Below, one piece after another: positions 7,526-13,321 of a DNA stretch of 64,000 nt. Below the pieces are notes generated by a model. That model did not search any database. It was not told where the DNA came from and saw only the letters and a program-made list of their open reading frames with translations. The stretch comes from an uncultured Gammaproteobacteria bacterium (GTDB lineage: Bacteria; Pseudomonadota; Gammaproteobacteria; Chromatiales; Chromatiaceae), in NCBI GenBank assembly GCA_963922315.1, contig CAWUID010000002.1, positions 9,546 through 73,545 on the forward strand, given 5' to 3'. Each line of letters starts with the position of its first letter. The first letter of the stretch is position 1. The translations under genes were made by a program, and so were the position numbers.

Positions 7526-7575
7526 AATTTTTAAATAAATATTTGATTTTGAATTAATTTCAGTGAAATGCAAAG

Positions 7576-7651
7576 TGGTGCCCAGAGGCAGAATCGAACT
7601 GCCGACACGAGGATTTTCAGTCCTCTGCTCTACCGACTGAGCTATCTGGGC
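7576..7651 (-). tRNA. tRNA-Phe (anticodon GAA), CCA encoded
   Basis: The reverse complement reads GCCCAGATAGCTCAGTCGGTAGAGCAGAGGACTGAAAATCCTCGTGTCGGCAGTTCGATTCTGCCTCTGGGCACCA. It folds by hand into a 7/4/5/5 cloverleaf with anticodon loop CTGAAAA and T-loop TTCGATT. Confidence 0.95.
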
Positions 7652-7717
7652 AACAATGTGTATTAGATACCAATATCACCCTGAACGTCAAGTATTTTAA
7701 TACTGGTAGTTTATATT

Positions 7718-7969
7718 GTGGAATTCGAACAACTATGTGAACTGATTCGGAATACATTGAAAATCAGCAATGTGTCGCTGGATCGGAGCACCAGACTGCT
7801 TAGTGACTTACCCGAATTTGATTCTCTGAGCCTGCTTATATTACTTAAAAGTCTCGAAGAAAAATACAACATCAGTATAGAGAAAGATGAACTAAGCAGT
7901 GATATTTTCGCAACAATTGGCAGCTTGTGGCAGTTTATAAAAAATAAAAATATGAAAAGCCCGATATGA
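7718..7969 (+). CDS. Acyl/peptidyl carrier protein-like small protein
   Basis: 83 aa with a GTG start. Carrier-protein helix-II motif [10 protein letters not shown] (Ser is the putative phosphopantetheine site). ATGA overlap with hemF. Low-GC codon usage. Confidence 0.5.
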
Positions 7970-8895
7970 AGAAAAAAATTGATATAGAGTCAGTCAGAAG
8001 TTACCTGAAAAATTTACAGCAAATCATCTGCAAAGAACTTGAGCAGGAAGACAAAAAAAAGTTTATAGAAGATAACTGGGAAAGAACCGAAGGTGGTGGT
8101 GGATGTTCCTGTGTTCTGGAGAAGGGAGAGGTTTTTGAAAAAGCAGGTGTTAATTTTTCTCATATCCATGGTGAGGAACTTCCTGCTTCAGCTACCACAG
8201 CACGACCAGAATTAACTGGATGTTCATTTCAAGCCATGGGTATTTCAATTGTTGTGCATCCCAGAAATCCTCATGCACCTACTTCACATGCAAATTTACG
8301 CTTCTTTATTGCAGAGAAGCCAGATACAGAATCTGTATGGTGGTTTGGTGGCGGCTTTGATCTTACACCTTATTATGGCTATGATGAAGATGCTATTCAT
8401 TGGCACAGGACAGCCAAATTCGCCTGTGACCCTTTTGGTGAAGATGTCTATACACGTTACAAAGCCTGGTGTGATCGCTATTTTTATATAAAACACAGAA
8501 ATGAAGCACGTGGTATCGGTGGACTCTTTTTTGATGACCTGAATACACCAGACTTTACGCAATCATTTGCCTTAGTAAAAAGCGTGGGGGACCATTATCT
8601 TCCAGCTTATTTACCTATCATCAAAAAACGAAAAAATATTCCGTATGGCACAAAAGAACGCGAGTTCCAGCTATACCGACGAGGTAGATATGTCGAATTT
8701 AACCTGGTTTATGACCGGGGAACACTGTTTGGCTTGCAGAGTCAGGGAAGAACAGAGTCTATTCTTATGTCATTACCTCCGGTAGTACACTGGAATTATA
8801 ATCATAAATCAGAAAAGAATAGCGAAGAAAAGAAACTATATGATTACTACCTTAAGCCGAAAAATTGGCTATCTGATCAAACCACATTTATCTGA
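7966..8895 (+). CDS. hemF: Oxygen-dependent coproporphyrinogen III oxidase
   Basis: [30 protein letters not shown] and [10 protein letters not shown] motifs. 309 aa. Confidence 0.95.
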
Positions 8896-8911
8896 ATAAA
8901 GGTAAAAAGTT

Positions 8912-10201
8912 ATCGAAATCTGGCATCACATACAGAAAAAGCTGAAGAAAGATCTGACTCAGCAAGAATATAGTACCTGGATACAACCGTTACAGTGTGT
9001 GCAAACTGAGGAAAAGTTGCAGCTTTTTTCTCCGAATTCGTTCGTTATGAAATGGGTGAAAGAACACTATGAAGAAAAAATTAATGGTTATCTTAAACGA
9101 ATTCAGTCCGATACAATTCTAGACATAAGAGTTGGTAACACAGAAAAAAGAGAAGATTTACAAGAAAAAGAAAATTACAAATCAAATGTTAATGAATCAT
9201 TTACTTTCGAAAACTTTGTTGAAGGAAAATCAAATCAATTAGCACGTGCTGCTGGTATACAGGTAGGTGAGAATCCAGGAACAATTTATAATCCAATGTT
9301 CATATATGGTGGCGTCGGGTTAGGAAAAACTCATTTGATGCAGGCAGTAGGCAATATTATCCAGAAAAAGAATCCGAATGCTAAAGTGCTTTACATGCAT
9401 TCAGAACGTTTTGTCGCGAATATGGTCAGGGCGTTGCAACACGGACTCATGGAAGAATTTAAAAAATCTGTACGCGAAGTAAATGCATTACTGATTGATG
9501 ACATACAGTTTTTTGCTGGAAAAGAACGCAGCCAGGAAGAATTTTTTCATACGTTCAATACATTATTTGAGTCCCATCAGCAGATTATATTAACCAGTGA
9601 TTGCTTTCCTAAAGAGGTGAAAGGTTTAGAAGATCGCCTTAAATCGCGATTTGGTTGGGGCCTGACTGTTGCTATAGAGCCACCTGACTTAGAGACCAGA
9701 ATGGCTATTCTGATGAGTAAAGCAACACAGTTATGTAAAACTGAGTTGCCTGATGAAGTTGCTCTTTTCGTCGCAAAAAATGTTCGTTCCAATGTCAGAG
9801 AACTTGAGGGTGCTTTACGTCGAATCAGTGCTAATGCTCAATTCACCGGACAACCAATAACAATTAGTTTTGCTAAAGAAGCACTACGAGATATGTTAGA
9901 TGCTAATGCAAGATTAGTTACGTTAGAGAACATCCAGAAAACTGTTGCAGAGTACTTTAAAACCCGGACATCAGATTTAATATCAAATAAACGTAGCAGA
10001 GCTATTGCACGACCCAGGCAAATTGCCATGTCACTCTCCAAAGAATTAACCAATCATAGTTTGCCTGAGATTGGTGAATCATTTGGTGGAAGAGACCATA
10101 CAACTGTTTTGTATGGAATACGAAAAATAAAAGAACTTCAAGGTATAGATCAAAGGGTCACTGAGGACTATAACAACCTGTTGAGAATTCTGAGTAATTA
10201 A
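8912..10201 (+). CDS. dnaA: Chromosomal replication initiator DnaA (start codon non-canonical or unresolved)
   Basis: [31 protein letters not shown] and [12 protein letters not shown] are present, with near-collinear similarity to E. coli DnaA. The canonical-start ORF begins at GTG 8999. DnaA domain-I homology ([28 protein letters not shown]) continues upstream to the stop codons at 8897/8903. Confidence 0.9.
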
Positions 10202-10212
10202 TGTGAGTAATC

Positions 10213-10256
10213 TGTGGATAATATTGAAAAGCCATATTGTCCACAATTTATCCACA
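10213..10256. promoter_or_regulatory. Cluster of three DnaA boxes directly downstream of dnaA
   Basis: TGTGGATAA (10213-10221, perfect, inverted), TTGTCCACA (10237-10245, 1 mismatch) and TTATCCACA (10248-10256, perfect). A very AT-rich stretch follows. Confidence 0.7.
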
Positions 10257-11846: not shown

Positions 11847-11860
11847 ATACTGTTCTGACT

Positions 11861-12433
11861 TTGTTGAAAAAAAATACTTTACGTATCACTGGTGGCAGTT
11901 ATCTTAGTAGACGCTTGTGCTTCATCCCAGAAAATGAGTTACGTCCAACAACTGATCGTATTCGTGAAACCGTATTCAGTTGGTTACAGTCTGAAATTCG
12001 TGAATACAAAATTTTAGATTTGTTTGCAGGTAGTGGTGTACTTGGGTTTGAAGCTTTATCTCGCAATGCATCTCAAGTCGTTTTTGTTGAGCGAAATAAA
12101 AACTCAATAACTCAGTTAAAGAATAATCTGAAAAACCTGAAAATTTCTGAAAAACAGGCTCAGGTGTTCCATACAGATAGTTTTGATTATCTAAAAAGAA
12201 GTCAAGATAGTTTTGATCTTATTTTTCTTGATCCACCTTTTTCTGGTAATTTGATTTGTGATTTTTTCAATCAAATCAATAATTTTAGTTGTCTGAACCA
12301 TTTAAAATGGATCTATCTGGAACAAACAGTTAAAAAAAATTGGCCAGTTTTACCTGAGCCCTGGTATTGGTATCGTCAGAAAGTTGCAGGTCAGGTGAAA
12401 TTTTCTTTGTTATGCAAACGTACAGATGTTTAA
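11861..12433 (+). CDS. rsmD: 16S rRNA (guanine966-N2)-methyltransferase RsmD
   Basis: LRPTTDRIRETVFSWL, DLFAGSGVLGFEALSR and IFLDPPF motifs. Classical rsmD-coaD neighbourhood. TTG start. Confidence 0.88.
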   Translation: MLKKNTLRITGGSYLSRRLCFIPENELRPTTDRIRETVFSWLQSEIREYKILDLFAGSGVLGFEALSRNASQVVFVERNKNSITQLKNNLKNLKISEKQAQVFHTDSFDYLKRSQDSFDLIFLDPPFSGNLICDFFNQINNFSCLNHLKWIYLEQTVKKNWPVLPEPWYWYRQKVAGQVKFSLLCKRTDV

Positions 12434-12549
12434 ATCAAATTTAAATCGCAAGCGAGGTATGAAACCTCGCCTGCGACCAAAGGGGCGAGAGCTACGCCTC
12501 TCCCCCTTTGGAAACCCCCATGGTTTTGTCCCCGCCGCAAGCGGCGGGG
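12433..12549 (+). repeat. Three-hairpin structured repeat, copy B
   Basis: Same architecture as copy A. The central roughly 75 nt are identical to A. The differences cluster in the HP1 stem and are mostly compensated. It begins on the last base of the rsmD TAA stop (TTTAAATCAAAT). Confidence 0.8.
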
Positions 12550-12568
12550 TATTTCAAGAATAAATTGT

Positions 12569-13060
12569 ATGCAGACTATTGCTGTCTATCCGGGTACTTT
12601 TGATCCAATAACTCATGGTCATACTGATCTGGCAGTGAGAGCCAGTCGCTTGTTTGACAAAGTGATCATTGCAGTGACCGAAAATACCAGAAAAAAAGCT
12701 ATATTCAGTTTAGAAAAAAGACTGTACCTGGCATCCACTGTATTCAATAAAAATACAAATATTGAGGTGTTACCTTTCTCTGGTCTATTGGTTAATTTTT
12801 GCCAGAAGAAAAAAGCTCAGGTTGTTTTACGTGGGCTGCGTGCTGTTTCAGATTTTGAATATGAGTTTCAGTTGGCTAATATGAACAGGCACCTGGCTCC
12901 AGGTATTGAGACGATGTTTTTGACACCCTCTCAGGATTACACTTTTATTTCATCGACTTTAGTACGCGAGGTCTCTGAACTAGATGGTGATGTGTCAGCT
13001 TTAGTGCATCCTGAAGTTCAAAATGCATTGAAGAGCCATTTTAAGCATATTGACGGTTGA
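12569..13060 (+). CDS. coaD: Phosphopantetheine adenylyltransferase
   Basis: [14 protein letters not shown] nucleotidyltransferase motif. 163 aa. Confidence 0.95.
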
Positions 13061-13066
13061 TTTCTT

Positions 13067-13315
13067 ATGTCTCTGATGATAACAGATGAATGTATAAATT
13101 GTGATGTATGTGAGCCTGAGTGTCCGAATGATGCGATATATCAGGGCGAACAAATTTATGAAATTAACCCTGACTTATGTACTGAATGTGTCGGACATTA
13201 TGAAACGTCACAGTGTGTAGAAGTATGTCCGGTCGATTGTATCCCTTTGGATCCGAATCGTCCTGAAACTCAGGAAGAACTGATGGTTAAATACCAAAAA
13301 ATTACAGGTAAATGA
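13067..13315 (+). CDS. YfhL-type 2x[4Fe-4S] ferredoxin
   Basis: 82 aa with [12 protein letters not shown] and CTECVGH...CVEVCP cysteine clusters. Confidence 0.85.
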
Positions 13316-13321
13316 ATTTTA

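Follow-up and report, generated by a model that had tools for sequence, protein, structure and literature searches.

Why is the lowest-G+C segment of a bacterial genome made up of core housekeeping genes, dnaA among them? The question is raised by a 64,000-bp stretch of DNA (here called the window) from an uncultured gammaproteobacterium of the Chromatiaceae (assembly GCA_963922315.1, contig CAWUID010000002.1, positions 9,546 to 73,545). An earlier note had described a 5.8-kb low-GC block around dnaA (positions 7526-13321 of the window) and had proposed transfer from an AT-rich relative, local mutational bias or misassembly as its cause. Here we report that the block is the core of a wider A+T-rich trough at synonymous sites, and that genes of this genus change their composition with their position relative to dnaA. 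We consider it probable that the trough, V-shaped and about 13 kb long, is native and anchored in cis on dnaA and the ancestral dnaA-dnaN spacer, the probable replication origin, and that genes within about 6 kb of this anchor are driven toward A+T.

Genomes and methods

The window's own genome (G000) has a size of 1.83 Mb, 57 contigs and a G+C content of 51.4%, and is probably metagenome-derived. It was compared with three genomes of the same genus, the congeners G001, G002 and G003 (the last a 93%-complete metagenome-assembled genome (MAG) of 210 contigs), and with genomes of the same family, among them G005, G007, G012 and G017. Genomes of the genus are reduced (1.5-1.8 Mb vs. 2.7-4.7 Mb in the family), and those of the family are GC-rich, with a G+C content at third codon positions (GC3) of 0.6-0.9 in their genes. 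Relatives were ranked by whole-genome searches of 30 relatives. A concatenated tree of TldD, HemF, DnaA and HemE (1588 columns, seven family outgroups) yielded the topology (G000,(G001,G002)) with 100% support and placed the genus within its family.

The GC3 values of G000 are based on a simple set of 1523 open reading frames (ORFs), which had a mean GC3 of 0.523, a standard deviation of 0.086 and a neighbour autocorrelation of 0.42. The trough was modelled as GC3 = bg - A*exp(-|d|/lambda), centred on the DnaA boxes 3' of dnaA. Lineage-specific changes were polarised by parsimony at fourfold sites, using 528 sites in genes that arrived beside dnaA in G001, 229 sites in genes that departed from it, and 376 sites in a left-half control (tldD, the gene of the acyl carrier protein (ACP)-like protein, hemF and dnaA).

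The trough around dnaA

The block has a G+C content of 38.6%, compared with 47.0% in the left flank, 52.4% at 17-64 kb and 51.4% in the genome. The sliding-window check proposed in the earlier note found no lower value among 3066 windows of 5.8 kb genome-wide, and the five hand counts of 60-nt lines given there (24/60, 16/60, 15/60, 28/60 and 35/60) are all exact. The gene content, described as core genes only, was likewise confirmed. The block and the trough that surrounds it comprise the following features.

3853..16793, + strand: full synonymous-site AT trough, leuA to pfp (GC3 0.25-0.41 vs. genome mean 0.523)
7526..13321: low-GC block, core of the trough (38.6% G+C; dinucleotide delta* at the 99.6th percentile)
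2371..3843, + strand: guaB, IMP dehydrogenase, left shoulder of the trough (TIGR01302, 633 bits; GC3 0.44)
3853..5394, + strand: leuA, 2-isopropylmalate synthase (NF002087, 878 bits; GC3 0.36)
5387..6061, + strand: udg4, family-4 uracil-DNA glycosylase (TIGR00758, 217.6 bits; GC3 0.41)
6074..7525, + strand: tldD, metalloprotease (NF008006, 664.7 bits; GC3 0.34)
7576..7651, - strand: tRNA-Phe (GAA) (ARAGORN; carried at the same position by G001 and G002)
7718..7969, + strand: small carrier protein, PP-binding/ACP-like (PF00550, 28.1 bits, cutoff 20.8; under the NCBIfam ACP cutoffs)
7966..8895, + strand: hemF, oxygen-dependent coproporphyrinogen oxidase (NF003727, 453.5 bits; GC3 0.31)
8912..10201, + strand: dnaA, the only one in the genome (TIGR00362, 533.6 bits)
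10202..10439: spacer, probable oriC core (238 bp, 29.8% GC; homologous to the family dnaA-dnaN intergenic region)
10776..11846, + strand: hemE, uroporphyrinogen decarboxylase (TIGR01464, 457.7 bits; GC3 0.30)
11861..12433, + strand: rsmD (TIGR00095, 173 bits; GC3 0.25)
12569..13060, + strand: coaD (TIGR01510, 186.7 bits; GC3 0.35)
13067..13315, + strand: fdx, YfhL-type 4Fe-4S ferredoxin (NF033683, 134.3 bits; GC3 0.28)
13322..15040, + strand: ggt, gamma-glutamyltransferase (TIGR00066, 481.5 bits; GC3 0.36)
15010..15531, - strand: pncC, nicotinamide-nucleotide amidase (TIGR00199, 166.9 bits, cutoff 68.9; GC3 0.40)
15540..16793, + strand: pfp, PPi-dependent phosphofructokinase, right shoulder (NF010675, 605 bits; GC3 0.38)

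From leuA to pfp the features follow each other in the order listed. The genes guaB, leuA, udg4, tldD, hemF, dnaA, hemE, rsmD, coaD, fdx, ggt, pncC and pfp are all core genes, and those of the block (tRNA-Phe, carrier protein, hemF, dnaA, hemE, rsmD, coaD and ferredoxin) and of its flanks (tldD, ggt) are present in single copy. The sole protein-coding gene on the minus strand of the trough is pncC, and it shares 31 bp with the 3' end of the oppositely oriented ggt.

The sharp edges that had been placed at the tRNA-Phe gene and the ggt start exist in total G+C but not at synonymous sites, where the trough extends from 3853 to 16793 and the flanking genes match the block (tldD 0.34 and ggt 0.36, coaD 0.35). 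These edges reflect GC1 and GC2, that is, amino-acid composition. Along the window, GC3 starts at about 0.6, drops to 0.29-0.31 in hemF and dnaA, is 0.25-0.36 from hemE to ggt, and reaches 0.5-0.63 past 17 kb. The V-shaped fit gave a background of 0.55, an amplitude A of 0.36 and a decay length lambda of 4.4 +/- 1.2 kb (R2 0.65); exponential fits for G001 or G002 alone did not converge, their range being too short. The run of 11 consecutive genes with a GC3 below 0.42 is the longest in the genome, the maximum in 2000 shuffles being 7. At the left shoulder, guaB has a similar GC3 in the congeners (0.39 in G001, 0.43 in G002).

The genome is patchy in GC, an outcome that the earlier note had listed as speaking against transfer, yet the dnaA patch is the extreme one. 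The other low-GC3 runs inspected are polysaccharide or accessory-like, mostly as judged by eye. Eight representatives were scanned with Pfam, of which seven matched: GT2, DegT, a Wzx-like flippase, GDP-mannose dehydratase, fucosyltransferase and Rieske oxygenase were above threshold, and one match was weak and sub-threshold. Two further low-GC3 genes on contig C30 are hypothetical, and the single one scanned had no Pfam match. Among the inspected runs, the dnaA trough is thus the only one built of core housekeeping genes. A low-GC3 patch on C33 beside rnpA/yidC, considered as the second half of an origin trough, was rejected because it consists of polysaccharide genes. The dinucleotide delta* of the native block (99.6th percentile) equals that of putative islands, whereas two polysaccharide islands are typical of the genome (67th-76th percentile). 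Signature-based island calling is therefore wrong both ways here, miscalling the block as foreign and the polysaccharide islands as typical.

Exchange of neighbours beside dnaA

The linkage dnaA-hemE-rsmD-coaD-fdx was probably ancestral to the genus, since G002 has an arrangement corresponding to that of G000, namely dnaA-hemX-hemY-hemE, and carries rsmD-coaD-fdx on another contig, which presumably abuts. Given this linkage, the exchange of the right-hand neighbours of dnaA would fall cleanly on the terminal branch of G001: a porin-like gene, glnB, yajC, secD and secF arrived beside dnaA, and hemE, rsmD, coaD, fdx and ggt are unlinked from it. The GC3 values of the arriving genes are as follows.

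porin-like gene: G001 (next to dnaA) 0.29; G000 0.55; G002 0.56; G003 0.48
glnB: G001 (next to dnaA) 0.27; G000 0.48-0.51; G002 0.56; G003 0.45
yajC: G001 (next to dnaA) 0.32; G000 0.49
secD: G001 (next to dnaA) 0.44; G000 0.66; G002 0.64; G003 0.65
secF: G001 (next to dnaA) 0.48; G000 0.72; G002 0.65; G003 0.63

Those of the departing genes changed in the opposite direction.

hemE: G001 (unlinked) 0.44; G000 (linked) 0.30; G002 0.30 (dnaA contig)
rsmD: G001 (unlinked) 0.44; G000 (linked) 0.25; G002 0.34 (second contig)
coaD: G001 (unlinked) 0.39; G000 (linked) 0.35; G002 0.30 (second contig)
fdx: G001 (unlinked) 0.41; G000 (linked) 0.28; G002 0.29 (second contig)
ggt: G001 (unlinked) 0.49; G000 (linked) 0.36; G002 not found

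In G002, where ggt was not found, fdx is directly followed by pfp. The GC3 of the arriving genes in G001 climbs with distance from dnaA, and their proteins are 62-90% identical to those of G000.

The polarised changes follow the same pattern. In the arriving genes, changes from GC to AT and from AT to GC numbered 68:7 on the G001 branch, compared with 12:19 in G000, 10:9 in G002 and 19:17 in G003. In the departing genes (hemE, rsmD, coaD and fdx) the ratio was 4:30 in G001 and 13:18 in its sister G002, and the left-half control in G001 gave 15:33. By Fisher's test, arriving genes differ from departing genes on the same branch (p = 5e-16) and from the arriving genes on all other branches (p = 3e-9), and departing genes differ from those of G002 (p = 0.01). 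Orthologues thus shift in composition when, and only when, their position shifts. Because the rearrangement was reciprocal and the other branches are balanced, it demonstrates that composition is set by position near dnaA and the spacer and not by gene identity. A force from G:C to A:T acts in cis beside dnaA and the spacer and decays with distance.

Long-term residents of the trough have shifted in amino-acid usage too. The FYMINK/GARP values of RsmD are 0.32/0.16 in G000, 0.23/0.26 in G001 and 0.14/0.38 in G007, and those of HemF are 0.31/0.23 in G000 vs. 0.21/0.30 in G007. The proteins of secD and secF, which arrived recently, are nearly unchanged.

Some points temper this result. The departing genes differ from the left-half control of G001 with only p = 0.06. 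Parsimony over-counts changes from common to rare states, and the control ratio of 15:33 comes from AT-rich DNA, which makes the departing-versus-control test conservative. The coding-strand excess of C>T in the arriving genes could partly be transcription-associated, and both the dnaA-porin junction of G001 and the hemE/rsmD contig break of G002 are as given in the assemblies.

Mutation or fixation bias

The arriving genes on the G001 branch gained A+T by 47 C>T, 14 G>A, 7 C>A and no G>T changes. The force acts mainly by C>T, on the strand that would serve as template for lagging-strand synthesis if forks depart from the spacer. Skews at fourfold sites are mirrored about the spacer, with a GC skew of -0.13 and an AT skew of +0.10 on the left (leuA to dnaA) and of +0.27 and -0.23 on the right (hemE to pfp), the leading/lagging pattern that forks moving apart from the spacer would leave. 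The change at the spacer boundary (GC skew +0.40, AT skew +0.33) ranks second among 971 gene boundaries for an origin-like switch. The same flip is found in G001 and G002, and the skews of secD and secF in G001 are reversed relative to their orthologues in G000. Deamination of the coding strand alone does not fit, because the genes on the left skew the opposite way although they lie on the plus strand. The A+T enrichment typical of a terminus, considered as another candidate, was rejected, as the polarity diverges from the spacer and is origin-like. The gene of the family-4 uracil-DNA glycosylase (5387-6061) sits within this trough dominated by C>T (uracil-type) change, which is probably a coincidence; any ung/UDG activity kept in the genus would bear on how the trough arises.

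The local mutational bias suggested in the earlier note therefore gains support in the sharper form of a positional bias tied to dnaA and the spacer 3' of it. We infer that mutation, rather than a bias in fixation, is the force behind it. In the mechanism that we propose, rearrangements in the genome-reduced genus would have parted dnaN-recF-gyrB from dnaA and placed genes for heme and CoA synthesis, an rRNA methylase and other housekeeping functions beside it. Genes within about 6 kb of the spacer would then be driven toward A+T with an e-folding length of about 4-5 kb, first at synonymous sites and later, in genes resident for long, also in amino-acid composition. This bias would be strand-mirrored (with C>T-type change on the plus strand rightward of the spacer and complementary change leftward) if replication proceeds bidirectionally from the spacer and damage of the cytosine-deamination type is increased, or repair poorer, near the origin. 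In slow-growing, genome-reduced bacteria, origin-proximal DNA may be single-stranded for longer or less repaired, which would result in an AT-rich mutational equilibrium. A tie of the AT pressure to replication initiation is plausible.

The same position effect could arise by fixation bias, if recombination were rare in the region, so that it escaped GC-biased gene conversion and relaxed to an AT-biased mutational equilibrium, or if A+T were selected near the origin for duplex stability or nucleoid-protein binding. The GC-rich family (GC3 0.6-0.9) implies a GC-maintaining force whose local loss would yield a trough, and fixation bias predicts the position effect equally well. The total of 87 changes in the arriving genes of G001, two to four times that of the other branches (22-46), also fits re-equilibration under any changed bias. 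By itself, however, fixation bias predicts neither the mirrored flip in polarity at the spacer nor the 3:1 excess of C>T over G>A, and selection for melting should extend over tens of bp, whereas the trough takes in +/-6 kb of coding DNA. We regard this explanation as unlikely, if still a serious one.

The spacer and the replication origin

The trough has its centre at the spacer that follows dnaA, which contains the following motifs.

10213-10221, 10237-10245 and 10248-10256: three DnaA boxes within 44 bp, two of them perfect
10282-10290 and 10346-10354: DnaA-box-like sites
10359-10370: trio-like motif, TAA-TAG-TAA-TAT

The cluster of DnaA boxes (TTATCCACA, few mismatches) lies at 10213-10256 and recurs in G001, G002 and the spacers of the family. 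The basal unwinding system (BUS) rule, which combines a DnaA box of up to 2 mismatches, a gap of 0-16 bp and at least 3 in-frame NAN trios (PMC8287927), finds a match at 10346-10370 (TTACTCACA, a 4-nt gap and TAA-TAG-TAA-TAT), and the module occurs at the same relative position in G001, G002, G012 and G017. The spacer is conserved in G001 and G002 despite a different next gene (hemE in G000, the porin-like gene in G001, hemX in G002) and forms a collinear alignment with five dnaA-dnaN spacers of the family (62% column identity). In G002, hemX and hemY (L014 1542-3862; Pfam HemX, HemY_N) directly follow the spacer. Their fourfold-site GC of 0.24-0.28 and DNA of 27-31% GC are the lowest of the region; no homologue of either was found in the window's genome, where they appear to have been lost.

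The layout in the family is canonical, with mnmE-yidC-rnpA diverging from dnaA-dnaN-recF-gyrB. The family spacer of about 225 bp is conserved, opens with TAA-TGTGGATAA at the dnaA stop, contains further boxes (GTTATCCACAG, TTATCAACAG) and ends in TAATAATAA-type triplets and an AT-rich run. In G005 (L018) it is 1.35 kb long, with a GC-rich insertion between two copies of the DnaA-box module; counted from the start of dnaA, the boxes lie at +1335/+1381/+1479 in one copy and at +2455/+2501/+2599 in the other. Family genomes show a GC dip of 8-15 points over the 3' part of dnaA, dnaN and recF, and a fourfold-site GC of 0.55-0.60 in dnaN and recF vs. 0.73 in mnmE and yidC. In the window's genome, rnpA/yidC and mnmE are on other contigs, and the former neighbours of dnaA on the other side lie 21 kb away.

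31086..35863, + strand: dnaN-recF-gyrB (tblastn with G007 proteins; GC3 0.49-0.51)

The trough has therefore stayed with dnaA and the spacer and not with dnaN-recF-gyrB, which have lost their AT shift and are now near the genomic mean in GC3.

The DnaA-box cluster, the BUS module, the tract of 30% GC, the local switch in polarity and the adjacency to dnaA together argue that the spacer is probably oriC. Several observations speak against this assignment. Single BUS matches are weak, since shuffles match the score in 4-58% of trials (p = 0.04-0.58). The synonymous minimum of the family lies over dnaN-recF and not exactly at the spacer, and a skew test across seven family genomes is confounded by the change of coding strand between rpmH and dnaA and by a preference for C-ending codons. 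A first rank among 66 co-oriented boundaries for the spacer depends on leaving out the real minus-strand gene pncC and was discounted. On the 81-kb contig, the polarity is not kept beyond about 7 kb on either side, a loss that rearrangements of the flanks among the congeners may explain. Cumulative GC skew on C2 and C15 shows no clear V, and the 57 contigs preclude locating a genome-wide minimum. Finally, the strongest DnaA-box cluster of the genome lies elsewhere (C15:28168-28729, 7 boxes, 4 of them perfect).

The trough might accordingly be anchored on dnaA and its DnaA-box spacer while the true oriC lies at another site such as C15, in which case the asymmetry would not stem from the direction of replication. 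In many Gammaproteobacteria, oriC lies outside the dnaA-dnaN interval. That of E. coli is separated from dnaA (PMC8287927). The cluster on C15 is the densest in the genome and conserved in the genus, and the long-range skew around dnaA is inconsistent. The C15 cluster was tried as the origin itself, but it shows neither a skew switch (rank 730 of 971) nor a GC3 trough and was kept only as a rival. Its presence in two copies per genome would better suit a repeated element that serves in regulation or titration, whereas the dnaA spacer combines its box cluster and trio-like module with the 30% GC tract and the second-ranking origin-like switch. An origin elsewhere thus seems improbable to us, although it deserves consideration. 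The C15 element (28168-28853) is a tandem duplication of units of about 350 bp, each with an inverted pair of perfect DnaA boxes (TTATCCACAGGATTTGTGGATAA), and is flanked by argH- and nadA-like genes as judged from their N-termini. Its palindrome is kept in the genus, where two copies, placed in tandem or close to contig ends, are usual, and it is also kept, if loosely, in the family. The element could serve to titrate DnaA, act as a regulatory site or be an alternative origin.

Gene identity, transfer and misassembly

The low GC might also be intrinsic to the genes, if those of the block were weakly expressed and without preference for GC-ending codons. In all family genomes examined, dnaA is lower in GC than hemE, hemF and tldD, and GC3 is autocorrelated between neighbours at the scale of operons throughout the genome. 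The same orthologues, however, vary by 0.04-0.25 in GC3 with dnaA linkage alone, and do so in both directions, and hemE, hemF, rsmD, coaD and fdx have an ordinary GC3 in family genomes. This makes an intrinsic cause very improbable.

Replacement of core genes by orthologues from an AT-rich relative could account for the low GC, the delta* at the 99.6th percentile and the adjoining tRNA gene, features that the block shares with tRNA-adjacent low-GC islands. The proteins of block and flank, however, rank their relatives alike, first the same congeners and then the same family: DnaA is 84% identical within the genus and 59-76% within the family, HemE 82-84% and 65-69%, HemF 77% and 60-67%, and the flanking TldD 79-81% and 56-62%. 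For these four proteins, matches from the same class have identities of 35-67%, which overlap the family range. The small carrier protein (7718-7969) shares 64-65% identity with its counterparts in G001 and G002. Block and flank trees are congruent, the other outcome named in the earlier note as one that would count against transfer.

Synteny and composition are kept in three species. The independently assembled G001 and G002 share the order tldD-tRNA-Phe-ACP-hemF-dnaA, its composition and a matching GC3 gradient from 0.6 down to 0.3 toward dnaA. In G001, hemE-rsmD-coaD-fdx-ggt are contiguous on another contig than dnaA, and in G002, dnaA is joined to hemE via two added genes (Pfam HemX and HemY). 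The order rsmD-coaD-fdx(-ggt) is ancestral, being the same in the family genomes G007 and G012 at a GC3 of 0.58-0.71 (rsmD 0.68-0.71, coaD 0.58-0.66, fdx 0.65-0.67, ggt 0.66 in G012), and the same genes are higher in GC3 where they are unlinked from dnaA. Presence is not patchy as expected of an island, since G001 and G002 hold the same genes in the same order. In G003, dnaA, hemE, hemF, tldD, coaD and ggt are all missing and secD is present; this MAG may have lost the whole AT-rich origin-region contig in binning, owing to its atypical composition.

The earlier note had seen neither an integrase nor a repeat of the tRNA end, which was borne out: there is no integrase among the annotated ORFs at 339-20512, and a search of the window that allowed up to 3 mismatches found the 24-mer at the 3' end of tRNA-Phe a single time, without a direct repeat. 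The block lies 5' of tRNA-Phe and not on the 3' side used by integrating islands. As the tRNA gene is kept at that spot in the congeners and the block is on its 5' side, its place at the block boundary is a coincidence. Unlike such islands, the block consists of single-copy core genes with vertical phylogeny, conserved synteny and gradual edges, lacks an integrase and an att repeat, and is on the wrong side of the tRNA gene.

The block also carries a GC-rich repeat of three hairpins, reported in the earlier note as two copies in the block and a third near 36 kb, all of which were found.

10440..10585, + strand: three-hairpin repeat, copy 1, member of a dispersed family
12432..12549, + strand: three-hairpin repeat, copy 2 (94% identical to copy 1)
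36011..36105, - strand: three-hairpin repeat, copy 3, same dispersed family

The family has at least 39 copies of at least 80 bp on 28 contigs, with 82-97% identity, and is specific to this genome, in line with the view that the segments belong to one genome rather than to a chimera. The element is about 135 bp long, GC-rich and resembles dispersed families of the MITE/REP type. Taken together, the ranking of relatives by block and flank proteins (genus before family), the synteny in the congeners and the genome's own repeat indicate that the DNA of the block is native and was passed on by vertical descent. They refute transfer from an AT-rich relative, to which we give a very slight residual probability. 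A chimeric contig that joins the DNA of two organisms might be suspected in a 57-contig, probably metagenomic assembly, but it is next to impossible, as the tldD-tRNA-ACP-hemF-dnaA junctions and their composition recur in G001 and G002, hemE-rsmD-coaD-fdx-ggt recurs in G001, G002 connects dnaA to hemE via hemX-hemY, the genome-specific repeat lies twice within the block, and GC3 shifts gradually and not stepwise.

Relation to known systems

The trough resembles replication-associated strand asymmetry, in which the leading strand is enriched in G and T, in that G exceeds C and T exceeds A at fourfold sites to the right of the spacer, with the complement to the left, and in that C>T dominates the polarised changes. 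Classical skew, however, spans whole replichores and leaves G+C unchanged, whereas the asymmetry of the trough is strongest within about 7 kb, fades with distance and is accompanied by a drop in GC3 of 0.2-0.3. A large region flanking the origin has been described as GC-richer than the genomic average and the terminus as AT-richer (PMC3091660). That regional structuring of GC3 likewise makes chromosomal position, not gene identity, the determinant of synonymous composition, but it extends over hundreds of kb with A+T at the terminus, whereas the trough of about 13 kb has the opposite sign, is about 100 times smaller and has origin-like polarity. Like origins of the DnaA-box and DnaA-trio type (PMC8287927), the spacer adjoins dnaA, has an AT-rich tract and clustered boxes, and contains a box-gap-(NAN)n module whose position is conserved. 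Such a BUS concerns about 100 bp of the origin; here, dnaN is no longer downstream, there is a compositional shadow of several kb, and the site is a predicted origin. In the open-access literature we found no account of an AT trough on the kb scale that goes with a position effect at dnaA or oriC, and this is weak evidence of absence.

Origins or dnaA-linked initiator sites may in general cast a kb-scale, distance-decaying and strand-mirrored C>T "mutational shadow" on their neighbours that is largely undescribed, a generalisation that we put forward tentatively and with more doubt than belief. If true, the shadow would oppose the textbook trend of a GC-rich origin and an AT-rich terminus, essential origin-proximal genes would look foreign to island detectors, and this genus would be the first case in which a reciprocal swap of neighbours cleanly separates position and gene identity. 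The natural experiment goes beyond correlation and shows that a position effect in cis over a few kb can set the base composition of bacterial genes, with a GC3 shift of 0.2-0.3 that is strong enough to alter the amino-acid composition of essential enzymes. For tetranucleotide binning and for methods that infer transfer from composition, the block is also a documented false positive, and the region is missing in one congener MAG. Should the origin be the anchor, a local regime of mutation or repair would be tied to replication initiation.

The start of dnaA

There is no ATG, GTG or TTG at the beginning of the conserved N-terminus of domain I (8906-9001). The first canonical start of dnaA is the GTG at 8999, the use of which would cut off domain I. 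In all three congeners with dnaA, the window's genome included, a Shine-Dalgarno-like AAGGAA/AAAGG precedes an ATT or ATC codon that aligns with the GTG/ATG start of the family DnaA. The start of dnaA is probably the non-canonical ATC at 8912, and the alignment suggests a genus-wide non-canonical (ATC/ATT) start, which would hold DnaA synthesis low.

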